This document shows, piece after piece, positions 15,816 to 31,261 of a stretch of 64,000 nucleotides of DNA (its first letter is position 1; every line of letters begins with the position of its first letter). This DNA is from Escherichia phage AnYang. The DNA is taken from sequence record MK234886; one strand, written 5' to 3'. A model generated the notes under the pieces. That model searched no databases. It was given only the letters and a program-made list of their open reading frames with translations, and was not told where the DNA came from. Both the position numbers and the translations under genes were made by a program.

Positions 15816-16043
15816 TTATTTTTGAATTAAGCCCATATAAAATTTAGCGTCTTCCGGGTGCATACCGTCACAATACTCGTCAGCCATAAAGCGGGTAAGG
15901 TCTTCAAGAGGACCTTGGACTTCAATTTGCATACTGCAGAATTGCGTATCTTTAATATAGGTCATAACTAAAGAAGGATAACGATTACGGATAACTTCGT
16001 AAGTGTATTCAAAATCAACGATATCAATATTAACCTTAGCCAT
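15816..16043 (-). CDS. hypothetical protein (frd.x position)
   Basis: ORF track; SD GAGGA; promoter 16074..16102 upstream. Confidence 0.4.
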
Positions 16044-16073
16044 TTTATTTTCCTCATGTAGTTGATAGGTTCT

Positions 16074-16102
16074 ATAGTATCATGTTTAAAGGCATTGTAA
16101 AC
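16074..16102 (-). promoter_or_regulatory. T4-type early promoter
   Basis: -35 GTTTAC (16097..16102), 17-nt spacer, -10 TACTAT (16074..16079). Confidence 0.6.
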
Positions 16103-16111
16103 CATTAAATG

Positions 16112-16138
16112 CCAAAAAGGGAAGACCGAAGTCTTCCC
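16112..16138 (-). terminator. intrinsic terminator downstream of gene 32
   Basis: GGGAAGAC-TTCG-GTCTTCCC hairpin followed by a TTTTT run. Confidence 0.75.
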
Positions 16139-16154
16139 ATTATAAATCAATAAC

Positions 16155-17066
16155 TTATAGACCAGCTAACAGGTCGTCCAGACCATCGTCATCAGAAGGA
16201 CTTACTGACGGCTCAGGAGTAGTGGAACGAGCAGGTGTAGACGGTTTGGAATCATATGCATCAAGGTCTGCACTGAATGCGTCCAGGTCATCACCAATCT
16301 TATCAGCGGCTGCAGATGCGACAGCGGCAGCACCACCAAGAGCAGCTGTACCAACAACTTTCTTAAACTTAGCTTCGTTAGTTTCGAATGATTTGAACTC
16401 GAGCAGTTTAGAAAGGTCGTGCATTTCTTCCATCAATTTAGCTTGGTAAGCTTCATCATTGATGTTAGGAATTTCAGACTGACCCATGAATTTGGAATCG
16501 TCATAGTTCTTGAAGTCGCCAACTTTCTTAGATTTCAGTACGAAGTTCGCACCATCAAACGGACATGTTACGTCAACCGGCACTTCACCGATATCAGTAT
16601 CAACTTCAACCATCTGGTTGATTTTATCCATAATTTTCTGACCGAAACGGAATTTAAACACTTTACCTTCGTTAGCAGGCACTGCACTATCCTTAATAAC
16701 AAGGATGTTAGCCCAGAAGGAAGTTTTACGTTTCATCAGTTTGTATTCGGCATTATTAGTATTAAAGGTATCATTCTGGTTCATGTATTTACATACAGGA
16801 CATGAATCGAAATCACCATGAGTAGACGTACATGATTCGATATACCACTGACCATTTTTCTTAAAACCATGGTTAACAAGCTTAACGAATGGGGATGGAT
16901 TAGCTTCGTTTTTCGAAGGAAGGAATCGAATAACTGCGGTTCCTACGCCATTGTCATCTTTCAATTTCCATTCGGATTTGTCATCAGACGAGAAAGAAGA
17001 GCCACCTTTCATTGCAGACAGTTGAGCAGCAAGTTCAGCAGGATTACGGCGTTTAAACATAGACAT
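16155..17066 (-). CDS. 32: gp32 single-stranded DNA-binding protein
   Basis: MFKR..AELAAQ, WKLK, zinc site CxxC and acidic C-terminal DDLL tail; near-identical to remembered T4 gp32. Confidence 0.95.
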
Positions 17067-17110
17067 ATTATTTACCTTATTTGATATATTTAATAAATTT
17101 ATTAACAGTT
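17067..17110 (-). promoter_or_regulatory. candidate gene 32 translational operator (A/U-rich leader)
   Basis: Leader AAUAAAUUUAUUAAAUAUAUCAAAUAAGGUAAAUAAUAUG is A/U-rich and unstructured, as expected for gp32 autoregulation. Confidence 0.4.
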
Positions 17111-17164
17111 GTTGTTATCACGTTTACCTTGATAACTAGGTTTTGAAGATGAAGTAATTATATA

Positions 17165-17809
17165 TCACTTCGAATAAAGCATTTTTAACTTAATGAATTC
17201 AGGGTCATCATTAGGAACCCAACCCTCATTAAATTGTTTAATCATACTCTTTGATGTAGTTTCACTAACATTTATACCAGAGTTAATGAGACGCCTCCAT
17301 CCACAAGCTCTTCCACTAGAATTAATTATACAATAATTAGTATAAGCAATATCACTAAGCATCCAATCTAAAGGGTTTGCTCTAGAAGTTTTCCAAGGAC
17401 GGTAATCGGGTTGATTCATATAGTTAGCAGCTTTCATATGGGCTCTAACTTCAGGACGTTTGGCTGGGTGAGTGCATCCAAAGACTCCAAATCCGCCACC
17501 GGCATAAACCAAATTAAAATAATCATCATTATCTCTAGCTTGAACTTCCAATTGTTCTGAACGTTCAATATTAATAACAATATCAAATGGCGTTATAGCC
17601 AAAATTTCAACAATAGGTTTTTCTTCTTCGAGGGCCTCTTTAAATCTTGATTGCTCGCAAGAGGTCCAATACTCTTTACCTTTACAGTCAATAATCACGC
17701 CATTTTCAAAAGTACAATTAGTTTTAGAACCTATGTACGAAAACGGCTTAATATTATTAGCCTGACGATTAAGCCAAGTCATTTTATAAACTATATTCAA
17801 AATTGACAA
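17165..17809 (-). CDS. hypothetical protein (T4 segG position); possible degenerate GIY-YIG-like N-terminus
   Basis: ORF track start is a TTG; N-terminus IVYKMTWLNRQANNIKPFSYIGS weakly resembles GIY..YIG, but the real start is uncertain. Confidence 0.35.
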   Translation of the reverse strand: MSILNIVYKMTWLNRQANNIKPFSYIGSKTNCTFENGVIIDCKGKEYWTSCEQSRFKEALEEEKPIVEILAITPFDIVINIERSEQLEVQARDNDDYFNLVYAGGGFGVFGCTHPAKRPEVRAHMKAANYMNQPDYRPWKTSRANPLDWMLSDIAYTNYCIINSSGRACGWRRLINSGINVSETTSKSMIKQFNEGWVPNDDPEFIKLKMLYSK

Positions 17810-18450
17810 CTCTTAATAGTCTCAATGAATAATTTTCTTGCCTCTACAGCATCTATTATAAGAATTTTTTTGTAAGCATTTAATTTAGTCGAATACTTAG
17901 ACCACACTAAATCGTTAGTCTTTTCATCGTGCTTATCAATTATACCCATAAATGAATCAAGCAAAATAAACGTTTCGAATGAAATCACATTTGATTGAAG
18001 GAGCTTAAAAATATAGCTCGAGTTAACTTTTTTATTATAATCAAAAATTTCAGAAAGCGCTTGAACTTCCACTTTCTTACTAAAATAATAAATGTTTTTG
18101 ATATCATCCTCAAAAACTTGTTTTATTCTTTTAAGTCTACCGATATATTCTCGGTAAAAGACTAAGGCGTCAGCATCACTGATGTCGCCAATCCATGCGT
18201 CTTGGTTAGCCACCAAGTTACTCATGAAGATAAGAGCAAGCTCTTTCAAAGTGTATTTATCACTCAATTTCTCAAAGAAATATTTGTCACGACGTTTTTG
18301 ATAAGCCGTATCAGAGATTCGCATGACCCAGTTATATTTTATAACGTCGTATTTGGCATTGAAGTGATGTTTAAGTTGCAAATATAAAGAATACACGCTC
18401 TTACCATTCACCATACGATTGCTGTTTGGTGGCATACGAATCTTAATCAT
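17797..18450 (-). CDS. 59: gp59 helicase loader
   Basis: 217 aa, near-identical to remembered T4 gp59. Confidence 0.9.
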   Translation of the reverse strand: MIKIRMPPNSNRMVNGKSVYSLYLQLKHHFNAKYDVIKYNWVMRISDTAYQKRRDKYFFEKLSDKYTLKELALIFMSNLVANQDAWIGDISDADALVFYREYIGRLKRIKQVFEDDIKNIYYFSKKVEVQALSEIFDYNKKVNSSYIFKLLQSNVISFETFILLDSFMGIIDKHDEKTNDLVWSKYSTKLNAYKKILIIDAVEARKLFIETIKSCQF

Positions 18451-19129
18451 GATATTTCCATCCGGTCCACTTATCGCTTTTTAATCTGTAACTAACCAAA
18501 CTATTAGATATTCCGAATTTGGAAGCCACTTCAGAACATGAATCATAACATATTCCATCGATAAGCAATTTCTTTTTGTATAAGTCTTTAAAAGATTGTG
18601 GCCTAGGTCCTGTATTTGCCTTAAGAAGAGCAGCTCTTGTACTATCAGGCATTTTAGGTCCTTTCTTACCTGCTCTGGATTTACTTAGAGCTTTTCGATG
18701 TGCATCGGTAAGATTAATACCTTTATTTGGTGAAGGTATATTTCTAAGTCTTCTTGTTATAGAAACTTTTTTACAAACACTATCAGGTCGTGGAATACCT
18801 AATTTAGATTTACTTATAGCAAGTTTATGTTCTTCAGATATTTTCTTACCAAGTCCACCTTTACCGCCAACAACCAAATTATAAGTATTCGGGTCTGAAA
18901 CAAATTCTTCGTTAACGAGTTCTCGCTCTTTATCAAAGGCCTCCTCTTGGGAATCCATAACAAAGAGAATTTCTTTTTCAAAATTCTCTATACCATGTTT
19001 TAATATAGCCTTCTTAATTAACTTACCTGAACCCATATAATGGTCATGGCGTTTGGTTTCTTTATGCACACCGATATAAATTTTACCATTCAATTTATTG
19101 GTTACTTTATATACGGTGTGTTTAATCAT
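18443..19129 (-). CDS. freestanding GIY-YIG homing endonuclease (Seg-like)
   Basis: YKVTNKLNGKIYIGVHKE GIY-YIG motif with repeated basic NUMOD-like segments; inserted between 59 and 33. Confidence 0.7.
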   Translation of the reverse strand: MIKHTVYKVTNKLNGKIYIGVHKETKRHDHYMGSGKLIKKAILKHGIENFEKEILFVMDSQEEAFDKERELVNEEFVSDPNTYNLVVGGKGGLGKKISEEHKLAISKSKLGIPRPDSVCKKVSITRRLRNIPSPNKGINLTDAHRKALSKSRAGKKGPKMPDSTRAALLKANTGPRPQSFKDLYKKKLLIDGICYDSCSEVASKFGISNSLVSYRLKSDKWTGWKYHD

Positions 19130-19428
19130 AACAAGAAATCCAGAGTATTAGTCTTTTGCGTTCTGGCCATTGAAGGTCGAAGCAAGTTATCATCAATGGC
19201 TTCGTTCATAATTTTATCAATAATTCCTGCAGGCAAATAACGAGCAAAGTTACCTTCAGGGATGCTGTTCTCTTCCAACCATGCGGTAGCCGCTTCGAGG
19301 TAACTACAACCTTCAGCCTCAACAAAGGCCTCAATATCAAGGCCATTCTGTTGTTTGTTTACCAATACATGGACGGGTTCGGAAGCGGTATTAACCGCTC
19401 CATCAAAATCATTCAAAGATTGTGTCAT
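19126..19428 (-). CDS. 33: gp33 late-transcription co-activator
   Basis: C-terminus EENSIPE...IDDNLLRPS..KTNTLDFLL matches remembered T4 gp33. Confidence 0.85.
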   Translation of the reverse strand: MTQSLNDFDGAVNTASEPVHVLVNKQQNGLDIEAFVEAEGCSYLEAATAWLEENSIPEGNFARYLPAGIIDKIMNEAIDDNLLRPSMARTQKTNTLDFLL

Positions 19429-19687
19429 ACAGTTCTACCACTTCAGTTTTTTCGTCTTCGAAACGTTCACGAGTGCCTTTATGGTACAAGGAGAACAGCT
19501 GGTTAAACATTTTACCATCTACACCAAGTTCAGTCTTAGCACGGTCTTTGATATCTTTAATTTCGTCACCGTAAGCTTCCATTTTTAATTTAGTATCGGA
19601 AGCCGACTTAATCAGTTGTGCCAATGTGTTACCATGTTCTTCTTGATTGAATTCAACTTTCACTTTTTCTTTAGCCATTATATTCAC
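19409..19687 (-). CDS. dsbA: DsbA-like double-stranded DNA-binding protein, by synteny
   Basis: About 90 aa between 33 and rnh as in T4. Confidence 0.55.
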   Translation of the reverse strand: MNIMAKEKVKVEFNQEEHGNTLAQLIKSASDTKLKMEAYGDEIKDIKDRAKTELGVDGKMFNQLFSLYHKGTRERFEDEKTEVVELYDTIFE

Positions 19688-19688
19688 C

Positions 19689-20636
19689 TTAATAAAAATC
19701 AGCTACTGTAGCGGTTAGTTTAGACAAACCGGATTTAACGAAATAAGGATAAACTTTAGATTTCGAAGGTTTGTTATACGTATTATATCTTTCAGTAATT
19801 AAAGCAACAATATCATCTGGAATAAAGTCCATATCAATTAAGATTTGGTTTTCACAGAAACGTTCATATTGTTCTTCAGTAAGAAGTGTTTTAATTATAT
19901 CATGGTCATAATAATTAAGAGCAATTGCTTCAAGTTCCTTGGCACGAGTGCTAGGAGTACGTTCGCCTTCAACCATTGTCAACCAGTAATCACCACGAAC
20001 TTTAATACTCGCAACGTTATCTTTACGGTCGCCTTTAACTACTTTAGTTACACAATCAAGCAAGGCATCGCCAGATTTCGTTTTGACGAATTTTTTCTGC
20101 ATTGGAGACCATTGTTTTACCCCAGGGAATTTATGAAGTTGGGTAAAGTCACCATCCGAAGAACCGATCATAACAGGATGGCCTAAAGCCGTGAGGATGC
20201 GAGTCAATACAGCAATATGGTCATCAGCTTCGATTGTATCGATATTCATAACAATATAAGGCATGTTTTGTTCCAGTTCATCAACAATAATATGCATTGC
20301 AGTGAATAAACCTTCCCAATCAAATGGTGATTCGTCACGTGCCTTAGCACGGTTTTTCTTATAATAAGAAGAATAACGACGACGCCAATAACCTGATTTA
20401 GAGTTATCGACACAAATGATTAATTGGTTGTAACCTTGTTTTTTAAAGTCTTTAATGTTTTTCTTAATTGAATTCAACACGAGATGTCGAAGCATTGCTG
20501 TAGTTACTTTAGGAAATCCAGCATTTTCACCAAATTCTTGGAAAGCCGCAGCCATAATGATTTGGCTGAAGTCTAACAACAAGAATCCATCTTTTTGTTG
20601 GTCTTCTTCAGGAAGTAAAAAATCTAAATCGTTCAT
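19689..20636 (-). CDS. rnh: RNase H (5'-3' exonuclease/flap endonuclease)
   Basis: Strong match to remembered T4 RNase H; start set to ATG 20636 because the ORF-track start lies inside the promoter -10. Confidence 0.9.
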   Translation of the reverse strand: MNDLDFLLPEEDQQKDGFLLLDFSQIIMAAAFQEFGENAGFPKVTTAMLRHLVLNSIKKNIKDFKKQGYNQLIICVDNSKSGYWRRRYSSYYKKNRAKARDESPFDWEGLFTAMHIIVDELEQNMPYIVMNIDTIEADDHIAVLTRILTALGHPVMIGSSDGDFTQLHKFPGVKQWSPMQKKFVKTKSGDALLDCVTKVVKGDRKDNVASIKVRGDYWLTMVEGERTPSTRAKELEAIALNYYDHDIIKTLLTEEQYERFCENQILIDMDFIPDDIVALITERYNTYNKPSKSKVYPYFVKSGLSKLTATVADFY

Positions 20637-20743: not shown

Positions 20744-23700
20744 ATGGCTGATATTTTAAAACCTGCATTCCGTGCTACATCCGGACTCGATGCTGCGGGC
20801 GAGAAAGTTATCAATGTTGCCAAAGCCGATTACAATGTATTAGATGATGGCGTCAACGTTGAATTCTTTATAGATGAGAACACCATCCAGGCGTACGACG
20901 AGACGCGCGGATATAAGAAAGGGTTTGCAGTAATCCATGACCAACGTATCTGGGTTTCTCAACGTGATATCGATGCTCCTGCAGGAACTTTTACTCCGGG
21001 CTATTGGACCGCTACCCGTACCGACCCTAAATGGATTACCGTAGCATCTCCTACACGCCAGCTGGCTTCCGGTGAATATATTGCGGTGGATTCCGCTGCT
21101 AGCTTTACTACATTTACCCTGCCTCCGAACCCTACTGATGGCGATACCGTTGTAATTAAAGATATTGGTGGACGTGTTGGTTATAACGAAATCAAGGTCC
21201 AATCTAGTTCTGCTCCTGGCGGCGGTAACCAGAAAATTGTTCGTTTTGGTAATCAGTTTACTGAGACCTTAATTACGAAGCCTTTTTCTTATAACATGAT
21301 TATCTTTGCTAACCGTCTTTGGCATTTCTGGGAAGCCGGTAATGAAGAACGTGGTATTCGGGTAGAACCGAACATGGCCCAGTTCCAATCACAAGCAGGT
21401 GATAACGTTCTTCGTCGTTATACTTCAGGTGCAGTAATTAAGTTTACCCTTCCTAAGTATGCGAACCAAGGCGATATGATTAAAACCGTTGATATTGATG
21501 GTTTAGGAAGTAAATTCCACTTAATCGTTGAAACGTTTGATGCTTCGTCTGCATTAGGTAAACCTGGTCAGCATAGCATGGAATTCCGTACCTCCGGTGA
21601 TGGATTCTTTGTTTATAACTCTACCGAAAAATTATGGTATGTTTGGGACGGCGACCGTCAAACTCGTTTACGTGTAATTCGTGACGATGTTGAGCTCTTG
21701 GCTAATGAAAGTGTTATTGTTTTTGGCCCTAATAATACAACGCCGCAGACGATTAATATCACATTACCCACAAGCGTAGCGCAGGGCGATACAATTAAAA
21801 TAGCGTTGAACTATCTTCGTAAAGCCCAGACAGTAAATATTAAGGCTGCTGTAGGAGACAAAATAGCTTCTTCGGTTCAATTGCTCCAGTTCCCTAAACG
21901 CTCTGAATATCCGCCGGATACTGAATGGGTTCTGAATGATGTGCTGACCTTCAATGGTAACTTGAGTTATACTCCTGTTATTGAGCTTAGCTATATTGAA
22001 GATTCTACTACAGATGCCAAATATTGGGTTGTGGCTCAGAACGTTCCTACTGTAGAACGTGTGGATTCTAAGGATGATTTAACCCGTGCTCGTCTTGGTG
22101 TTATTGCTCTAGCGTCACAGACCCAAGCAAACGTAGACCATGAAAATAATCCTGAAAAAGAACTGGCTATCACTCCACAGACTTTAGCCAATCGTGTAGC
22201 GACTGAATCACGTCGTGGTATTGCTCGTATTGCTACAACTGCTCAGGTAAACCAGAATACTGGATTTGCATTCCAGGACGATTTGATTATTTCTCCTAAG
22301 AAATTAAACGAACGTACTGCTACCGAAACTCGTCGTGGTGTAGCTGAAATTGCTACGCAACAGGAAACTGATGCAGGTGTTGATGATACAACCATTATCA
22401 CTCCTAAGAAGCTACAGACGCGCCAGGGAACTGAAACCCTGTCCGGTATAGTAAAATACGTATCCACCACAGGAACCACTCCTGCGACTTCTAGAGCAAC
22501 TGTAGGTACTAACGTTTATAATAAGAACACAACTACTTTGGTTATTTCTCCTAAAGCTTTAGACCAATATAAAGCTAACTACGAGAACCAAGGCGCTGTA
22601 TATCTTGCAACTGCCCCGGAAGTTAATGCTGGTACTACTAATCCTGGATTCCAGAATGCTGTAGTTACTCCTGAAATGTTACACCAACGTGTGGCCCTTG
22701 ATAGTCGTACAGGTTTAATTGAAATTGCTACGCAAGCAGAAACTGATACTGGAACTGATTATACTCGTGCGGTAACGCCTAAGACGTTAAATGATAGAAA
22801 GGCTACAGAGACTTTAACGGGTATTGCTCGTATTGGTACTCAAGTAGAATTTGATGCAGGTGTATTAGATAATGTTATTTCAACTCCGTTGAAAGTTAAA
22901 ACAAGATTTAATGATACTGCTAGAACTTCTGTCTCAGCAGCCAGTGGTTTGATTGAATCAGGAACCTTATGGAACCATTATACACTAGATATCCGTGAAG
23001 CAAGTAATACTCAACGTGGTACGGCTCGTTTGGCTACCCAAACTGAAGTTAATACTGGTACTGATGACAAAACAATCATCACTCCACTTAAGCTTCAAGC
23101 TAAAAAGGCTACCGAAAACGCTGAAGGTATTATCCAACTCGCTACTCAGGCCGAAGTTATTGATGGTACGGTAAGTAATAAAGCGTTTAGTCCTAAGCAT
23201 TACAAATATATCGTCCAACAGGAAAAATCCTGGGAAGCTACTTCTGCTCGTAGAGGATATGTTAAATTAACCACAGGTACAGCCACTTGGGAAGGTGACG
23301 ATACTAATGGTTCTGTTGCTAACCTAGCTAAATTTGAAGATAACGGCTTTGCTATTTCCCCTCTTCAAATGAACACTGCTTTAACTCATTATCTTCCGAT
23401 TAAAGGTAAGGCTTTTGACAGTGATAAATTAGATGGATTTGATTCTACGCAGTTTATTCGTCGTGATATAGCACAAGATATTAATGCTAATATGACATTT
23501 AAACAGCCTGTAAGAATTGAAAACACTTTAGCGGTCACCGGTGCGGTTAATTTGAGTGGCTCTGTTATTTCAAATAATACTACATTAACCGGTTCTACTA
23601 CAGTCAATAGCAATTCTACTATGGGTGCTTTGAATTACATTGAGTTCACTTCAGAATCTCAAGGTGCGGGTACTTGGAACTCTCAACACAATAGTAATGT

Positions 23701-24622
23701 TAAAGCTCCTGTATTTTTAAATATAACTACAGGTCCAGGCTCTTCTAAATACGTTCCTATCGTAAAGCAACGGTATAAAACTGGGACATTTAGTTTTGGT
23801 ACTTTAATAAATGAGTCCGAAGCAAGTCCGGACGAAGGTTCATTTGTATTGCATTATATTGATGAAGCCCAGACACAAAGAAGATGGACCTTCCGTAGAG
23901 ACGGTTCCCTACTTTTATCAGCAGGTGACTTAACTCTATACAATGGTAATGCTACTATTAATGGCGGGTTAAGTGTAACTAAAGCATCCGGTATTACTAC
24001 TACGGGATTGGTTGCTTCCTCTTCATCAAGATTTGATGGCAGTGTTGCAATTAATAATACATTAACTGTTCGAGACCCTTTGACAGCTAATGGTGGTTTA
24101 ACGGTTAATTCAAGAATTCGTTCACAAGGTACTAAACCTGCCGACCTTTATTCCAGAAAACCTAATGCAGATAATACCGGTTTCTGGTCCGTTGACGTTA
24201 ATGATTCAGCTACATATAATCAGTTCCCAGGTTATTTTAAAATGGTTGAAAAAACTAACGAAGTAACAGGACTGCCGTATTTGGTTCGTGGTGAAGAAGT
24301 TAAATCGCCTGGTACGTTAACTCAGTTCGGTAACACTCTGAATTCGCTTTACCAAGATTGGATTACCTATCCAAATACTGCAGACGGAAGCACTACTCGT
24401 TGGACTCGTACTTGGCAGCAAAATAAAAATGCTTGGTCTGGATTTGTTCAGGTATTTGATGGCGGTAACCCACCACAACCGTCCGATATCGGTGCTTTGC
24501 CTTCTGACAACGCTTCAATGAGTAACTTGACCATTCGTGATTGGTTACGTATCGGTAACGTACGTATGGTTCCGGACCCGGTAACTCGTTCTGTTAAATT
24601 CGAATGGATTGATACACCATAA
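20744..24622 (+). CDS. 34: gp34 long tail fibre proximal subunit
   Basis: 1292 aa; N-terminus resembles T4 gp34; late promoter 20704..20711; internal repeat motifs. Confidence 0.9.
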   Translation: MADILKPAFRATSGLDAAGEKVINVAKADYNVLDDGVNVEFFIDENTIQAYDETRGYKKGFAVIHDQRIWVSQRDIDAPAGTFTPGYWTATRTDPKWITVASPTRQLASGEYIAVDSAASFTTFTLPPNPTDGDTVVIKDIGGRVGYNEIKVQSSSAPGGGNQKIVRFGNQFTETLITKPFSYNMIIFANRLWHFWEAGNEERGIRVEPNMAQFQSQAGDNVLRRYTSGAVIKFTLPKYANQGDMIKTVDIDGLGSKFHLIVETFDASSALGKPGQHSMEFRTSGDGFFVYNSTEKLWYVWDGDRQTRLRVIRDDVELLANESVIVFGPNNTTPQTINITLPTSVAQGDTIKIALNYLRKAQTVNIKAAVGDKIASSVQLLQFPKRSEYPPDTEWVLNDVLTFNGNLSYTPVIELSYIEDSTTDAKYWVVAQNVPTVERVDSKDDLTRARLGVIALASQTQANVDHENNPEKELAITPQTLANRVATESRRGIARIATTAQVNQNTGFAFQDDLIISPKKLNERTATETRRGVAEIATQQETDAGVDDTTIITPKKLQTRQGTETLSGIVKYVSTTGTTPATSRATVGTNVYNKNTTTLVISPKALDQYKANYENQGAVYLATAPEVNAGTTNPGFQNAVVTPEMLHQRVALDSRTGLIEIATQAETDTGTDYTRAVTPKTLNDRKATETLTGIARIGTQVEFDAGVLDNVISTPLKVKTRFNDTARTSVSAASGLIESGTLWNHYTLDIREASNTQRGTARLATQTEVNTGTDDKTIITPLKLQAKKATENAEGIIQLATQAEVIDGTVSNKAFSPKHYKYIVQQEKSWEATSARRGYVKLTTGTATWEGDDTNGSVANLAKFEDNGFAISPLQMNTALTHYLPIKGKAFDSDKLDGFDSTQFIRRDIAQDINANMTFKQPVRIENTLAVTGAVNLSGSVISNNTTLTGSTTVNSNSTMGALNYIEFTSESQGAGTWNSQHNSNVKAPVFLNITTGPGSSKYVPIVKQRYKTGTFSFGTLINESEASPDEGSFVLHYIDEAQTQRRWTFRRDGSLLLSAGDLTLYNGNATINGGLSVTKASGITTTGLVASSSSRFDGSVAINNTLTVRDPLTANGGLTVNSRIRSQGTKPADLYSRKPNADNTGFWSVDVNDSATYNQFPGYFKMVEKTNEVTGLPYLVRGEEVKSPGTLTQFGNTLNSLYQDWITYPNTADGSTTRWTRTWQQNKNAWSGFVQVFDGGNPPQPSDIGALPSDNASMSNLTIRDWLRIGNVRMVPDPVTRSVKFEWIDTP
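22190..23170 (+). repeat. tandem degenerate peptide repeats inside gp34
   Basis: Recurrent about 40-aa units: TESRRGIARIATTAQV, TETRRGVAEIATQQETD, LDSRTGLIEIATQAETD, TETLTGIARIGTQVEFD, NTQRGTARLATQTEVN, ENAEGIIQLATQAEV. Confidence 0.6.
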
Positions 24623-24630
24623 GAGGTAAT

Positions 24631-25755
24631 ATGGAAAGATTTATGGCTGAATTTGGACAAGATTATGTTCAAATTCCTGTACTATCTGAAAATAATGCCG
24701 TTAGTTATAAACTTAGTATAGCAGGGAGCTGTACTAAGTCCACTAAAAAGGCTTATATCAAATTTCAAGATGAGGACTTCGGTCCTCAGAATTTCCAATC
24801 TGGCCTAAATTTGGTTGAAATAGACCCGACAAATAACACAATAGTAACTACAAAATCATACGCATTTACCAAAGACCATGATGTTATTTCCCAAGCGTTT
24901 ATAACTTATATTTCGTCTATACCTGCCGGTAGAATTGTTTGCTTTATTTCTTCCGGTAAATTAAACGCCTCACAGATATTAATTGATTGGTTTAGAGCTT
25001 CCGGTTCTGCAGCGTTTCCAGATAAATGGCTTATTGATAAAGTGGATACTTCTTATTCAGCTTTTTATGTTTCAGGAAGAAATGCTATTGTAATGGAACA
25101 TGTGCTTTATAACGATGGCGTTTTGGTAGAAGACGTTTCCACCCCATTAGAAGTCGTTTATGACAACTTTAATGATGTAGGAGGAACTGGGTTCCCTGTT
25201 AGAGTCGTTGAAGATGAAAACACTTACTATAGTGGAGCTACTCAAGAAATTAAAAGGTTTCCTACCGAATCCACTATAACTCCTTGTGCCGGTTATAATA
25301 TGGTTCCTGGAGATTTCTTTTATCTTAAATTCCAAATGACCTATGACCAGGCTTTAAAAGATTTAGGGACGACCCAGATGTCCATACGTTTTTTTAATGG
25401 TCAGGAAATGCTTCAATCCACTGATATCAATATTCCTGTAGGAGCGGGCTCTCCACCTGCAGGCGCATGGATGTCTTTTGAGCGCGTAATAGAAGTTCCG
25501 CCGAATGCTAATGGTTTTACATTATATTGTAGAAAAACTGTCTCAGGCGGAGTAGGAGGTGTTAGGAATGTTATGTTTGGTGAAATAGCTAGACCTGAAG
25601 ATACACCTAAATCCGCTGAAATTGGTGTTAATGGTATTCGTATGAGCTATGGTACCGAAACCCGTTCAATGGGTAATGTTATTGCACAATTGAATGATAA
25701 ATCATCTGGTAATGCAGGTAAAGTATTTGTTCAAGAATTTAAAGAAAAATATTAA
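24631..25755 (+). CDS. 35: gp35 long tail fibre hinge protein
   Basis: 374 aa, coupled to gene 34; synteny and size. Confidence 0.8.
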   Translation: MERFMAEFGQDYVQIPVLSENNAVSYKLSIAGSCTKSTKKAYIKFQDEDFGPQNFQSGLNLVEIDPTNNTIVTTKSYAFTKDHDVISQAFITYISSIPAGRIVCFISSGKLNASQILIDWFRASGSAAFPDKWLIDKVDTSYSAFYVSGRNAIVMEHVLYNDGVLVEDVSTPLEVVYDNFNDVGGTGFPVRVVEDENTYYSGATQEIKRFPTESTITPCAGYNMVPGDFFYLKFQMTYDQALKDLGTTQMSIRFFNGQEMLQSTDINIPVGAGSPPAGAWMSFERVIEVPPNANGFTLYCRKTVSGGVGGVRNVMFGEIARPEDTPKSAEIGVNGIRMSYGTETRSMGNVIAQLNDKSSGNAGKVFVQEFKEKY

Positions 25756-25777
25756 GGGACCTTACGGTCCCTTTTTG
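25756..25777 (+). terminator. intrinsic terminator downstream of gene 35
   Basis: GGGACC-TTAC-GGTCCC hairpin followed by TTTTTG. Confidence 0.7.
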
Positions 25778-25778
25778 C

Positions 25779-25786
25779 TATAAATA
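25779..25786 (+). promoter_or_regulatory. T4 late promoter (genes 36-38)
   Basis: Exact TATAAATA about 26 nt upstream of the gene 36 ATG, just after the gene 35 terminator. Confidence 0.7.
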
Positions 25787-25811
25787 CGTTATCTAATAAA
25801 GAGGAATAACT

Positions 25812-26459
25812 ATGGCTGATTTAAAATTAGGCTCAACTGCTGGAGGTTCCGTTATATGGCACCAAGGTAACTTTCCGTTGACGCCGGTATCAAATGATAT
25901 TTTATATAAGACCTACAAAATCTATACCGAATTTAATAAGCCTCAAGCCGCAGATAACGACTTTGTTTCTAAAGCAGCAGGTGGTTCTTACAAAGGGACT
26001 GTTAACTTTGAAAAGGGATTAATGTTTAATGATTCCACTGGTTATGGAATCAAACTTGGTGCAAGAAATGGCGGACAACCTTTTACTGCTTCATTTAAGA
26101 TTAAAGGGCCTTTTGGCTTTGAAACTGAAACAGGAACCCCGTTTGTAATCTTTGACCCAACCACTACGGTAGGAGCTAACCGACTTACTGTAATGGGTGA
26201 TATCCTAGGTCGTCAAATTAAAGACGAATCTGGAAGAGTATTTTCTCCAGGGAATACTCCTACTAAGGCCCAGGTGGGTTTAAGCGATGTAGATAACGCA
26301 AAACAGGTCCAAATAAATAATAGTAACATACAATCCATGGCTGGTGTTCTTTCAGCCCCGAATTTCATATCTAGGAACCCAGGAACATTGAACGAACACG
26401 TTCCTCGTATTGACCAGGTTGTTCTTAGAGGTACATCTGAAGATTTTGGATATTATTAA
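25812..26459 (+). CDS. 36: gp36 long tail fibre distal connector
   Basis: 215 aa; late promoter 25779..25786; synteny and size. Confidence 0.8.
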   Translation: MADLKLGSTAGGSVIWHQGNFPLTPVSNDILYKTYKIYTEFNKPQAADNDFVSKAAGGSYKGTVNFEKGLMFNDSTGYGIKLGARNGGQPFTASFKIKGPFGFETETGTPFVIFDPTTTVGANRLTVMGDILGRQIKDESGRVFSPGNTPTKAQVGLSDVDNAKQVQINNSNIQSMAGVLSAPNFISRNPGTLNEHVPRIDQVVLRGTSEDFGYY

Positions 26460-26467
26460 GAGGCATT

Positions 26468-29400
26468 ATGGCTACTTTAAAATCGATACAATTTAAAAGA
26501 AGTAAAATAGCAGGAGCCAAGCCTACTGCAGCTCAGTTAGATGAAGGCGAACTGGCTATTAACTTGCGTGACCGCACTATTTTTACCAAGTCAGACCAGG
26601 GACAGATTATTGATTTAGGTTTTGCGAAGGGTGGAACTATTGATGGGGATGTTCTTCAAAACGGGACATTTAACCTTAACGGTAACCAATTTGTTTATGC
26701 CGGTAAATATATTGAATTTTTACCTAAGACTGCCGGTAACGGTGCCTGGGCTAACCAACATCTGAATAAAGCCCCTATCTTTACAGATTTGAGTTCAACT
26801 ACTTCAACTTCTGAATACCACCCTTTGATTAAGCAACGTTATAAAGACGGCACTTTTTCAGCAGGTACATTAGTAAGCGAAGGCAGTTTTAAATTCCATT
26901 ATATCAATGAAACGGGTGATTCAAAATATTGGACGTTTAATCGTAATGGTAGTTTTATTGTAGATAATGGCAATATTGAGGTCCGCGCAGGTAATATTAA
27001 CTCGGCCAATGGTGTTATCACTGGTCCTGAAATTGTTACTAAAAATATTAATTTCAGTACAAAACCCTTTGTAGCTAATGCCAACATCGGCTATGACTGG
27101 GTTTCTTTGCCCACCTGGGTTTATAACCCACCAGCTGATGGTTCTGATGATACTACTAACGGTTTAAACTATTTGCGTAAATTACGCGCATCAAGTGCAT
27201 CAAGTATTTTCCATGAAATTGCTGATTGTCGCAAAGGTAAGCCACAAGAAATTTCTTGGTGGACTGGTGTCGGTCCTTCGTCTTTCCAATGGGCTTTTGA
27301 TAACTCTGGACGTATTACTGCAGGTAAATCTATTTCTGTCGGTCTTCCTGATAATGGTGCAAATGGACGTTATCCACTTGAGTCTGCAATTTCTATTGGT
27401 ATTGCAATTGGTGATAACGATACTGGTATTAAATGGGTCCGTGACGGTGTTTATGACCTGATGGCTAATGGTATTTCATCTGCTACCATTTTGAATAACG
27501 GTATTAATAGCACTAAGAAATTGATGGTTGGTTATAGCCGTGATTCGGGTACTACATGGGATTTCCCAAATACCAACCAGGCTATGTTCACTGCACGTAC
27601 TGATGTTGATGGCAATAATAACGGTGATGGTCAGACTCATATCGGTTATAGCAGCAATGCCAAGATGTATCACTATTTCCGTGGCACGGGTCGTATGTCT
27701 GTTAGCATGGGTGATGGACTTCTTGTTGAGCCAGGTATTTTAGATATTAAAACCGGTACTAATACGTTATCTTTCCGCGCCGATGGTACCGTAGCTTCAA
27801 CACAAAGAACAAAATTTGATAATGGCCTAATGCTTAACTCTAATACCAGAAATGACGGTATTACATTTACTGCTGCTTCATCCATTGACGGCACTAAACA
27901 GATTTTATGGGAAGGCGGTACTCGAGCAGGTCAGAATAAGAGTTATGTAACTGTTAAAGCATGGGGTAATTCATTTAACGCCACTGGCGATAAATATCGT
28001 GAAACTGTATTTGAAGTTAGTGACGGGCAAGGATACCATTTTTATTCTCAACGGGGCGCGCCTACAAATGATGAAACTGTTGGCCCTGTATTAATGCAAA
28101 TTGCAGGTTCTTTAAATGCAAGAGGAACATTAAACACTGATAGCAATCTTTATGTGAAAGGATTAAGTACACATGAAGGTACCGTAACCATGAATAACGG
28201 CCTTCGCTTAACAGGCGGCGCTAATATAAGTGGCCAAGTTAAAATTGGCGGTGTTAATGATGCATTGAGAATTTGGAACGACCGATATGGTGCCGTTTTC
28301 CGTCGCTCAGAAACATCATTACATATTATCCCAACCAATGAAAATGAAGGGGAAAACGGTCCGATAAGCAACCTTCGTCCGTTTAGTATTGAATTAGGTA
28401 CCGGTGCCATTAATATAGGCCATTCTTTAATGATAGGCAACTCGGCACGCGCCGATGGCCTGTTGAATATTGATACCAAAGCATTCTTGATTACAATTAA
28501 CAGTCATTCGAAAATTAACCCTAACTATCGTATGGACCTGGAAAACGGTGCTTATATAAATGCTTTGATGGATTCAAATGGTCGTTCAGCTGGTGCAGGT
28601 TCATTTGCTTCCCAGAATAACGAAAACGTCCGCGCGCCATTTTATATGAATATCGACCGTGATGATACCAGCACTTATGTTCCTATGATAAAACAACGTT
28701 ATGTTCAGGGCAATGGTTGTTTTTCGATAGGTACTTTGCTTAATAACGGTAATTTCCGTGTTCATTACCATGCAGGCGGCGATGGTGGTTCTACCGGTGC
28801 TCAGATTGCTGATTACGGTTGGGAATTCACTAAATCCGGTGATTTTGTATCCCCTAAACGCGTTTCTGCTGGTGGTACAGTTTATCTTGGCACCGATGGT
28901 AATATTACGGGTGGTTCATTACCTAACTTTGCTAACTTGAACTTGACATTAGACCGTAAAGTCAATACCCGAATGGTTTCTTATTCAGGTACTGGCGGTT
29001 GGTATAAATTAGCCACTGTAACAATGCCACAATCCACTTCAACCGTCACATTCGAAATTGCTGGTGGAAATGGTTATAATATTAACACTCCACACCAATG
29101 CGTTACTTCGAAAATTGTTTTAAGAACTTCGAATAACAATCCGAAAGGTGTTAACGCGGTTGTTTGGTCGATGGATGTTGCTCAAGGTATTAAAAATGTC
29201 GCAACTGTTAATACATCAGGTGATGTTTATGACATTTATGTAAATGTAGGTACATATGCTCAGGCTCTAGCAGTTTCTTATTATGCTACTCCTAATGCAA
29301 CCATCAACCAGATATTTGCTTCAGATTCATCCGGCGCAACAGAAACTGCAGTTGAACTTCCAGCCGAGGCTATCCAAGGGGTGGTTGCTAGTGTTCTGAA

Positions 29401-30439
29401 TAACTTGGCTCCTACCCCGACCGGCGTGAAGCGTTATGAAGCTGATTCCGAAATAGCTATTAACAACCAAACCGGTATTCGTATCAGAAGTAACTACGAT
29501 AAAGCGGGTTCTAATGCTTTAATGATGCGAAATGATGGTGGAAGTTTTTATATTCTTATAACTGATAAAAACGCAACCGATGGCGCTGCAACAGTTAACG
29601 GTGATTGGAACTCATTGCGTCCTTTTACAATAAGCATGACTACCGGTGAAGTATCAATGAATAATGGTACAATTCATCGTGGTTCCTCTTTGTTCTACAA
29701 TGGCATAAACGTCAAAGATAACGGTTCGATTAACTTTGATAAATCAGGCGCAAACCCGAGAAACATGCGTATATTCCATGCTGGTGATGGCACACGCGGA
29801 AACCGTATTGAAATTGCTGATGACTCAAGCTATATTGTTTATTTCGAAAAAACTCCGGCCGGAGCAAACCGTTCTTCATATAATAGCTGCGAAGTTAACG
29901 GTATAACTACCCTTAGCGTCGGAACTAAGATTAACACCCCACAAATTGGAGCATTTGGTGTCAATACAACAAATGGATGGGGTGGTAACTCCATTGCAAT
30001 TGGTGATAGCGATACAGGTTTCAGACAAGTTGGTGATGGTCTTTTAGAAGCTTGGGCTAACAACGTTAAAGTTGTACGTTTTACTTCTAGTGAAGTATAC
30101 TCCGAGAAAAACGTCAATGCTCCTAACGTTTATATTCGTTCTGATATCAGATTGAAATCAAACTTCAAGCCTATTGAAAATGCTCTTGAAAAGGTTGAAC
30201 AGCTCGACGGTTTAATCTATGATAAAGCAGAGTATATTGGCGGTGAAGCGGTTCAAACTGAAGCAGGTGTTATTGCTCAGAAACTTAAAGAAGTATTACC
30301 TGAAGCAGTGCATGAATCTTTAGATTCGCAGGAAAATATGGTTCTGACAGTTTCGACTCAGGCACAAGTTGCTCTGTTAATTGAAGCAGTTAAAACCCTG
30401 TCGGCTAAAGTTAGAGAACTTGAAGCTAAATTAAATTAA
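26468..30439 (+). CDS. 37: gp37 long tail fibre distal subunit with C-terminal intramolecular-chaperone-like domain
   Basis: 1323 aa; last about 99 aa (SDIRLKSNFKPIENALEKV...) resemble peptidase S74 / endosialidase-chaperone domains. Confidence 0.85.
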   Translation: MATLKSIQFKRSKIAGAKPTAAQLDEGELAINLRDRTIFTKSDQGQIIDLGFAKGGTIDGDVLQNGTFNLNGNQFVYAGKYIEFLPKTAGNGAWANQHLNKAPIFTDLSSTTSTSEYHPLIKQRYKDGTFSAGTLVSEGSFKFHYINETGDSKYWTFNRNGSFIVDNGNIEVRAGNINSANGVITGPEIVTKNINFSTKPFVANANIGYDWVSLPTWVYNPPADGSDDTTNGLNYLRKLRASSASSIFHEIADCRKGKPQEISWWTGVGPSSFQWAFDNSGRITAGKSISVGLPDNGANGRYPLESAISIGIAIGDNDTGIKWVRDGVYDLMANGISSATILNNGINSTKKLMVGYSRDSGTTWDFPNTNQAMFTARTDVDGNNNGDGQTHIGYSSNAKMYHYFRGTGRMSVSMGDGLLVEPGILDIKTGTNTLSFRADGTVASTQRTKFDNGLMLNSNTRNDGITFTAASSIDGTKQILWEGGTRAGQNKSYVTVKAWGNSFNATGDKYRETVFEVSDGQGYHFYSQRGAPTNDETVGPVLMQIAGSLNARGTLNTDSNLYVKGLSTHEGTVTMNNGLRLTGGANISGQVKIGGVNDALRIWNDRYGAVFRRSETSLHIIPTNENEGENGPISNLRPFSIELGTGAINIGHSLMIGNSARADGLLNIDTKAFLITINSHSKINPNYRMDLENGAYINALMDSNGRSAGAGSFASQNNENVRAPFYMNIDRDDTSTYVPMIKQRYVQGNGCFSIGTLLNNGNFRVHYHAGGDGGSTGAQIADYGWEFTKSGDFVSPKRVSAGGTVYLGTDGNITGGSLPNFANLNLTLDRKVNTRMVSYSGTGGWYKLATVTMPQSTSTVTFEIAGGNGYNINTPHQCVTSKIVLRTSNNNPKGVNAVVWSMDVAQGIKNVATVNTSGDVYDIYVNVGTYAQALAVSYYATPNATINQIFASDSSGATETAVELPAEAIQGVVASVLNNLAPTPTGVKRYEADSEIAINNQTGIRIRSNYDKAGSNALMMRNDGGSFYILITDKNATDGAATVNGDWNSLRPFTISMTTGEVSMNNGTIHRGSSLFYNGINVKDNGSINFDKSGANPRNMRIFHAGDGTRGNRIEIADDSSYIVYFEKTPAGANRSSYNSCEVNGITTLSVGTKINTPQIGAFGVNTTNGWGGNSIAIGDSDTGFRQVGDGLLEAWANNVKVVRFTSSEVYSEKNVNAPNVYIRSDIRLKSNFKPIENALEKVEQLDGLIYDKAEYIGGEAVQTEAGVIAQKLKEVLPEAVHESLDSQENMVLTVSTQAQVALLIEAVKTLSAKVRELEAKLN

Positions 30440-30472: not shown

Positions 30473-31261
30473 ATGGCAATTGTAGGAATACCTGGTTGGA
30501 TTGGTGAATCTGCAGTGAATGAAACTGGACAACGCTGGATGGATGCTGCTATGCGTGATGTGCGAGTTGCAGTACCGGGTTGGATGGGTTCGATGGCTAA
30601 CCAATCAAAAGAAATTTACTTATCTATAGGGGCTAATAACTCTTATGACAGAAATACGCTAATTAATTGGATGAGAGCCCAAGGCGGTGCGCCTGTGGTT
30701 ATTACTATAACCGGGAATATAGTATCAAATAGCCGTGGAAACCCGTGTCTGGAATTCCCTAGCAACTTACCTAATGCTTATATACAACTTAATATTAATA
30801 GTGGTGTAACCGTTTATGGTCGAGGAGGTAATGGTTCTACTAATGGTACTGCAGGCCAAGCAGGCGGTACAGCAATCCATAACGCCGCTGGAACCAAATT
30901 GCGTATTCGAAACAATGGTGCTATCGCTGGCGGTGGCGGCGGTGGCGGTGCTGTATCGTTACAGAACAGCTATCCGACTAACGGTACCTGTGGCGGCGGT
31001 GGTGGTAGACCATTCGGCGTCGGTGGGAAAATAGGGTCTGATGCCATATTGTCCGGTGCAAACGCATCTCTAACTGCCGCTGGCTCAGGTGGTACCACGG
31101 TCCAATACGGTGCAGGTAACGGCGGTAATGTTGGTGCTGGCGGTGGACGAGGATGGGGCAAAAACGTTTATACCTCTGCAGGCGGTTCAGCTGGTGCAGC
31201 CGTTACAGGCAATGCTCCTTCTTGGCAGAACGTAGGAACCATCTACGGAAGCCGTGTGTAA
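30473..31261 (+). CDS. 38: gp38 receptor-recognising adhesin, T2-type with glycine-rich motifs
   Basis: 262 aa; MAIVGIPGWIGESAVNETGQRW N-terminus and GGGGGG tracts match remembered T2-type gp38. Confidence 0.85.
   Translation: MAIVGIPGWIGESAVNETGQRWMDAAMRDVRVAVPGWMGSMANQSKEIYLSIGANNSYDRNTLINWMRAQGGAPVVITITGNIVSNSRGNPCLEFPSNLPNAYIQLNINSGVTVYGRGGNGSTNGTAGQAGGTAIHNAAGTKLRIRNNGAIAGGGGGGGAVSLQNSYPTNGTCGGGGGRPFGVGGKIGSDAILSGANASLTAAGSGGTTVQYGAGNGGNVGAGGGRGWGKNVYTSAGGSAGAAVTGNAPSWQNVGTIYGSRV
30890..31150 (+). repeat. glycine-rich motif repeats in gp38 (GGC/GGT codon tracts)
   Basis: Runs GGGGGGG and GGGGG with short variable segments between them. Confidence 0.6.

Follow-up and report, generated by a model that had tools for sequence, protein, structure and literature searches.

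For the long tail fibres of T-even phages, the swapping of interchangeable fibrous motifs is an established principle, which explains much of the plasticity of the fibre locus (PMC3157838). In the proximal subunit gp34 of T4, the beads P3 (residues 945-1013) and P4 (1048-1104) are followed by a beta-helix, by domain P5 (1146-1238) and by a C-terminal cap, for which contact with gp35 and gp36 has been proposed (PMC5537660). The kneecap protein gp35 joins (gp34)3 to (gp36)3-(gp37)3, and the distal subunit gp37 meets gp36 and not the hinge (bioRxiv 10.64898/2026.03.06.709160). Here we describe the fibre locus in a DNA stretch of 64,000 nucleotides (nt) from Escherichia phage AnYang (sequence record MK234886), which is referred to as the window. 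One domain, for which we use the working name module A, occurs there once in gp34 and twice in gp37. AnYang is a Dhakavirus-like T-even phage, and the closest phage records are the Dhakaviruses dhaeg, IME08/IME341 and JS98 (80-94% DNA identity). Its fibre genes have the T-even order 34-35-36-37-38-t, where t codes for the holin, and this order, together with the homology to T4, identifies gp34 and gp37 as T-even long tail fibre subunits. We consider it likely, with a probability of about 80%, that the fibre shaft contains length-matched slots which are filled by unrelated bead domains, and that these domains are swapped via conserved flanks.

Three copies of module A

The original prediction, made from the sequence alone, stated that a single domain is present three times across gp34 and gp37. 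BLASTP, shuffling and profile searches all agree with this, at the positions where the copies had been placed (Table 1). The BLASTP alignments connect residues 939-1098 of gp34 with residues 55-210 of gp37 (36% identity, E 2e-24), residues 932-1075 of gp34 with residues 645-816 of gp37 (31%, E 4e-13), and, within gp37, residues 79-164 with residues 693-794 (36%, E 5e-11). Smith-Waterman scores for the three pairs are 243, 151 and 127, equivalent to z = 40, 24 and 17 when compared with 1000 shuffles (shuffled mean ~31, standard deviation ~5). The composition-adjusted E-values of BLAST and the shuffles exclude chance or low complexity as the source of this similarity. The copies have a Shannon entropy of 4.0 bits and use 18-20 residue types.

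The sequence motif by which the domain had been recognized is genuine. Across the three AnYang copies and the single copy of T4 there are 26 invariant columns (G.G..Q..AP..S.Y.P..KQRY..G..S.GTL..G.F..HY..W.F...G). Two details had to be revised. The homologous unit comprises about 105-140 residues, according to the envelopes of a hidden Markov model (HMM), rather than about 70, and the gp34 copy is not C-terminal, as 208 residues come after it. When an HMM built from the copies was applied to all six reading frames of the window, no fourth copy was found (next-best E 0.2). As judged from these alignments, module A is a single homologous domain common to gp34 and gp37.

At the DNA level, the three copies are only 43-50% identical in codon-based alignment, without any identical run longer than 8-9 nt. 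A DNA-level repeat, which could point to recent duplication or act as a recombination substrate, is thereby ruled out. Amino acid identity between slots within AnYang is 31-40% in one comparison and 35-44% in another, while copies at the same place in different phages are much closer: 75% for the internal gp37 copy (A2) compared with T4, 70% for the N-terminal gp37 copy (A1) compared with T2, and 69% for the gp34 copy compared with phage ECO07P3. Neighbour-joining likewise places copies from the same slot together, rather than those from the same phage. The low DNA identity and the grouping by slot indicate that the three AnYang copies are ancient paralogues, which did not arise by recent duplication or gene conversion. 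For the internal copy, a duplication or a past recombination had been suggested. Recombination has indeed shaped the distribution of module A, but recent copying within gp37 did not take place, as the copies are old.

Cassette slots in gp34 and gp37

The slot in gp34 becomes evident upon comparison with IME08. DNA identity is 94.1% up to position 23433, similarity is absent from 23434 to 24091, and from 24092 to 26652 identity is again 93.6%. Both breakpoints (23433/23434 and 24091/24092) are sharp against a 94%-identical background. Correspondingly, gp34 of the two phages shows 96-100% amino acid identity outside of this block and 6-30% within it. T4, T2 and IME08 hold the Gp34_trimer (P3/P4) cassette, here called cassette B, in this slot. 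The gp34 proteins of AnYang and T4 align end to end except for residues ~920-1110, where module A of AnYang is opposed to beta-helix, P3, beta-helix and P4 of T4. From residue ~1117 on, the AnYang protein is highly similar to the C-terminus of T4 gp34, and the Pfam domain Gp34_2nd (PF21560) covers residues 1140-1238, downstream of module A. The junction motifs FIRRDIAQ (upstream) and GGLTVNSRIRSQGTK (downstream) are common to gp34 proteins with either cassette. The replacement cassettes are similar in length, and gp34 has 1289-1299 residues in T4, AnYang and IME08.

Among 120 gp34 homologue clusters, ranked by similarity to AnYang, 18 carry module A and 62 carry cassette B, always at residues ~945-1115, while 40 carry neither and none carries both. 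Module A is a replacement for the T4-type P3/P4 cassette in AnYang gp34. In addition, a patch at gp34 residues ~616-660 (nt ~22589-22723), within the alpha/beta repeat rod, has 56-73% identity to IME08 amid flanks of ~100%. This patch may be a second, smaller exchange site.

AnYang gp37 is collinear with that of T4 (residues 1-839 versus 1-813, 48% identity). Within this alignment, residues ~62-190 are unrelated to T4: AnYang has A1 where T4 has 'LWFENADGTERGVIY...'. A1 is also present in T2 and dhaeg, while the unrelated cassette 'LWFENADGTERGVIY' is found at this place in T4, IME08 and ECO07P3. The comparison with gp37 of T4 and T2 revealed that T2 has both A1 and A2, whereas T4 has a single copy of module A, at residues 660-799, which is the counterpart of A2; the other two copies do not exist in T4. 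Between AnYang and T4, gp37 is most highly conserved in A2 (76-86% amino acid identity), whose region at nt 28589-28855 reaches 80.9% DNA identity to T4, the top value in the locus. Homology to T4 ends at residue 839, just after A2. A2 is thus the last conserved domain before the receptor-binding region and marks the boundary between the constant and the variable part of gp37.

With 1323 residues, AnYang gp37 is longer than T4 gp37 (1026 residues), and the ~300 extra residues are all located beyond residue 839. They make up a C-terminal region of the T2 type, which includes two Gp34_trimer-like stretches as well as a Peptidase_S74 chaperone. The original prediction regarded the internal copy as a duplication that lengthened the distal fibre. 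This reverses the polarity: the copy is the only one in T4, it is collinear and the best conserved, and since the extra length lies beyond it, it did not lengthen the fibre. 

Gp34_trimer-like sequences were searched with jackhmmer, seeded with T4 gp34 940-1110. A cassette of this type is found directly upstream of A2, and gp37 residues 438-661 also match T4 gp34 905-1112 in a PDB sequence search. This likeness to gp34 corresponds to the gp34/gp37 similarity that is already known (PMC3004832). Further downstream, Pfam PF21446 matches at gp37 residues 962-1055. Gp34_trimer-like stretches are thus a second domain that is repeated inside gp37, with three occurrences, and explain part of the extra length of the T2-type protein. 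As gp37 ends in a Peptidase_S74 domain and the gp38 adhesin follows next, the fibre tip is of the T2/S16 kind and not of the T4 kind.

The A2 slot has an alternative cassette as well. The best 120 gp37 homologues, a sample which is biased towards A1, all contain A1; A2 is also present in 71 and lacking in 50 of them. In both scanned homologues without A2 (P0061 and P0041), the A2 slot is filled by the Pfam domain gp37_trimer (PF20744), and we therefore consider gp37_trimer to be an alternative cassette. PF20744 is listed only among gp37 homologues without A2. It has no match in AnYang gp37 and only a marginal one (E 0.002) in 2 of 41 module segments.

Table 1. Long tail fibre features in the AnYang window (coordinates in nt; aa, amino acids; iE, independent E-value).
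Feature	Position	Strand	Remarks
gp34, proximal long tail fibre subunit, 1292 aa	20744-24622	+	T4 gp34 (PDB 9x3r_M), E = 0 over aa 5-1290
Variable cassette slot, gp34 aa ~898-1116	23434-24091	+	module A and flanking beta-helix-like sequence; breakpoints from comparison with IME08
Module A, gp34 copy, aa 954-1084	23603-23995	+	HMM iE 1.9e-49; BLASTP E 2e-24 to gp37 N-terminal copy
Conserved knee block: gp34 P5 and cap (aa 1117-1292), gp35, gp36, gp37 aa 1-61	24092-26652	+	continuous 93.6% DNA identity to IME08
gp35	24631-25755	+	within knee block; ILEI domain
gp36	25812-26459	+	within knee block
gp37, distal long tail fibre subunit, 1323 aa	26468-30439	+	48% identity to T4 gp37, aa 1-839 versus 1-813
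Module A, gp37 N-terminal copy (A1), aa 69-187	26672-27028	+	HMM iE 3e-56
Gp34_trimer-like cassette B, gp37 aa 472-657	27881-28438	+	directly upstream of A2; jackhmmer iE 2.2e-67
Module A, gp37 internal copy (A2), aa 684-825	28517-28942	+	HMM iE 5e-49
Gp34_trimer-like stretch, gp37 aa 955-1068	29330-29671	+	jackhmmer iE 1.5e-24
Gp34_trimer-like stretch, gp37 aa 1103-1188	29774-30031	+	jackhmmer iE 4.9e-07
Peptidase_S74 intramolecular chaperone domain, gp37 aa 1225-1282	30140-30313	+	Pfam PF13884 E 1.1e-15; matches S16 gp37 C-terminus (6f45)
gp38, T2/S16-type tip adhesin	30473-31261	+	Pfam GP38 E 8e-80; Gp38_N E 3.8e-16

The slots are occupied independently of each other (Table 2). For the gp34 slot and the N-terminal slot of gp37, all four combinations are observed among the seven phages compared, which excludes an obligate pairing of the gp34 copy with A1.

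Table 2. Slot occupancy in seven phages, strong copies only (A, module A; B, cassette B).
Phage	gp34 slot	gp37 N-terminal slot	gp37 internal slot
AnYang, dhaeg	A	A	A
ECO07P3	A	not A	A
Bp7	divergent A	not A	divergent A
T2	B	A	A
T4	B	not A	A
IME08	B	not A	not A

Beyond this locus, 1.84 billion representative proteins were searched exhaustively with an HMM, which retrieved 141 clusters with module A at E <= 1e-3. These include gp37 of Serratia phage X20 and prophage fibres of 300-700 residues with a P2-type N-terminus (PF12571). In the P2-like fibres, module A is positioned directly before the Collar domain, just as the T4 copy (660-799) precedes Collar (816-863). In 133 module segments, the module is located roughly two-thirds of the way along the protein, and the median number of residues that follow it is 119. 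As this location before the tip is family-wide, the A2-type position, just before the receptor-binding tip, is the typical one, and the positions in gp34 and at A1 are derived uses. Among the same 133 segments, which come from other fibre proteins, 48 have a motif of the N-F-D-x-R-Y type at or just after the C-terminal end, with ~120 residues left. This motif suggests that module A marks the junction between constant and variable parts in P2-like fibres, too.

We propose that module A is a self-contained domain of ~105-140 residues of the trimeric fibre shaft. Each chain would most likely contribute a five-stranded antiparallel sheet, as predicted by the structure model, and three such sheets around the three-fold axis would form a triangular-prism bead. 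By analogy to the P3/P4 beads of T4 gp34, beads of module A may be stacked between triple beta-helix stretches. Triangular beta-prism beads are a class which includes T4 gp34 P3/P4, the P22 tailspike, T7 gp17 and T5 pb1. The slot at gp34 residues ~900-1115 accepts module A, the Gp34_trimer cassette or others, that at gp37 residues ~62-190 module A or a T4-type cassette, and that at gp37 residues ~660-830 either module A or gp37_trimer. Cassettes would be carried between phages by recombination in the conserved flanks, so that AnYang merely happens to hold module A in all three slots, each copy probably belonging to a slot-specific lineage that is common to other phages.

Fold, function and alternative explanations

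The gp34 copy was modelled as a monomer with AlphaFold2 (AF2). The model (predicted local distance difference test, pLDDT, 86.1; predicted template modelling score, pTM, 0.74) is a meander of five consecutive strands at gp34 residues 1002-1011, 1014-1022, 1034-1040, 1045-1050 and 1056-1059 (nt 23747-23920), with short loops between them. Structure prediction, which the original prediction had named as a way to check the module, thus points to the antiparallel sheet of about five strands per monomer that is expected for a beta-prism. When two AF2 monomer models (pLDDT 70.9 and 86.1) were used for fold searches, only generic beta-sheet matches were returned.

A domain model for module A is found neither in Pfam nor in NCBIfam, and PHROGs returned whole-protein fibre families only. 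PF21446 (Gp34_trimer) has no match in AnYang gp34, and its matches in gp37 are outside of module A. Two distant homologues (P0132 and P0155) are named "pyocin knob domain" at NCBI. In the libraries searched, which do not include the model behind this name, NCBIfam has no match for either of them, nor for the window proteins, and no pyocin fibre was retrieved from the PDB by sequence when the module profiles and P0132 served as queries. A narrow profile, a broad profile and a distant homologue all failed to retrieve a fibre structure for module A by sequence from the PDB, where they gave only weak matches to ricin-lectin motifs. The broad profile matched the QxW repeats of ricin-B-type lectins with a full-sequence E-value of 2e-5, each stretch having an iE of ~1. 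Pfam ricin matched none of 41 module members at E <= 1, and an identity as ricin-B-type lectin (beta-trefoil) was rejected. The weak similarity is in the C-terminal half of the module, e.g. at 23843-23920, and probably stems from a hairpin motif common to both, W-x-F-x-x-D-G.

Several points count against the exchange of bead domains between slots as we propose it. Only a monomer has been modelled, so that we infer the trimeric bead, and a purely structural role of module A is an assumption. HHalign gives no indication that module A is a remote homologue of the cassettes it replaces or of its neighbour: the probability is 0.8% for the Gp34_trimer cassette, 0.1% for P5 (Gp34_2nd) and <1% for the N-terminal cassette of T4 gp37. 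The Bp7 copies do not fit neatly into the slot clades of the tree. The frequencies obtained from the two sets of 120 homologues (gp34 and gp37) are biased by their ranking according to similarity to AnYang. Finally, the strong conservation of A2 could mean a specific function, for example in chaperone-assisted folding or fibritin docking.

This last point leads to an explanation which we consider unlikely, namely that module A has a specific binding or folding function, either for a carbohydrate or secondary receptor, for docking of fibritin/whiskers to retracted fibres, or as a folding nucleus recognized by gp57A. It would agree with A2 being more conserved than the rest of gp37, with the typical family position just before receptor-binding tips, and with the collar fibritins of T4, which clamp gp37 between domain 6 and domain 7. 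The ricin-type QxW match could be cited as well (full-sequence E 2e-5), but its individual stretches and the Pfam ricin result speak against a lectin. In addition, unrelated cassettes freely replace module A in every slot, unlike what is expected for an indispensable partner site, and the conservation of A2 is equally explained if it serves as a recombination linker and structural junction.

According to another explanation, the gp34 copy and A1 are a matched pair of hinge-contact modules, while the internal copy is a later duplication or recombination product that lengthened the distal half-fibre. It is true that these two copies are near the hinge. They are the first variable cassettes on each side of the knee block, they are symmetrical about it, and AnYang and dhaeg have both. 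The regions that contact the hinge, however, are others: the gp34 copy ends at residue 1084, with the conserved P5 and cap downstream of it, A1 starts at residue 69, after the conserved N-terminal 61 residues of gp37, and these segments stand between the copies and the knee proteins. In T4, it is the cap that has been proposed as the contact, and gp36 stands between gp37 and gp35. Moreover, only the gp34 copy of the two is present in ECO07P3, only A1 in T2, and neither in T4 and IME08, from which it follows that the two copies are not a required pair. Lengthening by the internal copy disagrees with its presence in T4, its status as the best-conserved segment of gp37, the collinear alignment and the location of the extra length after residue 839. 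We thus regard this explanation as very improbable. From the original prediction, the shared domain and the involvement of recombination are retained, but not the hinge contact and the lengthening of the fibre.

A recent intragenomic duplication or gene conversion in the AnYang lineage can hardly be upheld, even though all three copies lie inside one 6-kb locus and T-even phages recombine efficiently (PMC3157838), because identity between the copies is low for both protein and DNA, no identical run exceeds 9 nt, and each copy is far nearer to the same-slot copy of other phages.

Neighbouring features and comparison with known systems

Residues 57-128 of gp35 match an ILEI/PANDER-like domain (Pfam PF15711, E 2e-8), in agreement with the recent report of such a domain in the T4 kneecap protein gp35 (bioRxiv 10.64898/2026.03.06.709160). 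Upstream of gp34, small leftward genes are found, and the region 16001-20000 has a G+C content of 0.35-0.36, compared to ~0.40 elsewhere. Two open reading frames within gp37, on another frame or strand (27195-27461, plus strand, 88 residues; 28150-28479, minus strand, 109 residues), are most likely spurious.

Mosaicism of tail fibres is known, and the working model of the fibre is unchanged by our results, as mosaic exchange of fibrous motifs at this locus has long been established. What is new is that a domain family so far without annotation is defined and that three cassette slots are mapped precisely. This map, at the level of coordinates and with sharp breakpoints in natural slots, is useful for fibre engineering and for the annotation of fibre proteins without assigned domains. 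It also flags a family of 141 clusters that has no entry in Pfam, NCBIfam or the PDB.

A wider generalization is doubtful at present. Module A might represent a family of trimeric fibre domains, as yet without annotation or solved structure, that is located at the constant/variable junction across unrelated myoviruses (T-even and P2-like) and is reused by T-even phages in the length-matched slots flanking the knee, the slot content being under selection, for example for stiffness, geometry or escape from the defence system PD-T2-1. This system is triggered by gp34, gp37 and gp12 of T2, which share a T4 gp34-type domain (PMC12236752). AnYang gp34 has module A in the slot and is devoid of the T4 gp34-type domain. 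A connection between slot content and escape from fibre-sensing defence by PD-T2-1 is a speculative extension.

The closest known counterparts are the P3/P4 beads of T4 gp34 (PF21446; PDB 5NXF, 5NXH, 4UXE), which occupy the same gp34 slot between the same conserved flanks, with a cassette length similar to that of module A. They consist of five-stranded antiparallel sheets with a triangular core (PMC5537660), and the module A monomer is predicted to be five-stranded, too. Like module A, the Gp34_trimer cassette occurs in both gp34 and gp37. Reuse of motifs is likewise documented by the similarities between T4 gp34, gp37 and gp12 (gp37 486-513 versus gp34 971-998, gp12-type alpha/beta repeats, collar; PMC3004832). 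However, these concern other modules, and module A, which is single in T4 (gp37 660-799), is absent from that list.

Tail fibres of the P2/Mu type (PF12571, Phage_fiber_2 repeats, Collar) have a recognizable module A (E 1e-19 to 1e-18) before Collar and tip, as in T4 gp37. They differ by having a single copy in a much shorter protein, with 39-54% core identity. The swapping of distal fibres and adhesins among T-even phages (Tetart et al. 1996, 1998; Trojet et al. 2011) proceeds by exchange at conserved motifs that flank divergent segments and results in a mosaic locus, just as in AnYang. While those cases affect the adhesin and the C-terminal specificity region, the units exchanged in AnYang would be shaft beads far from the tip, one of them in the proximal half-fibre.

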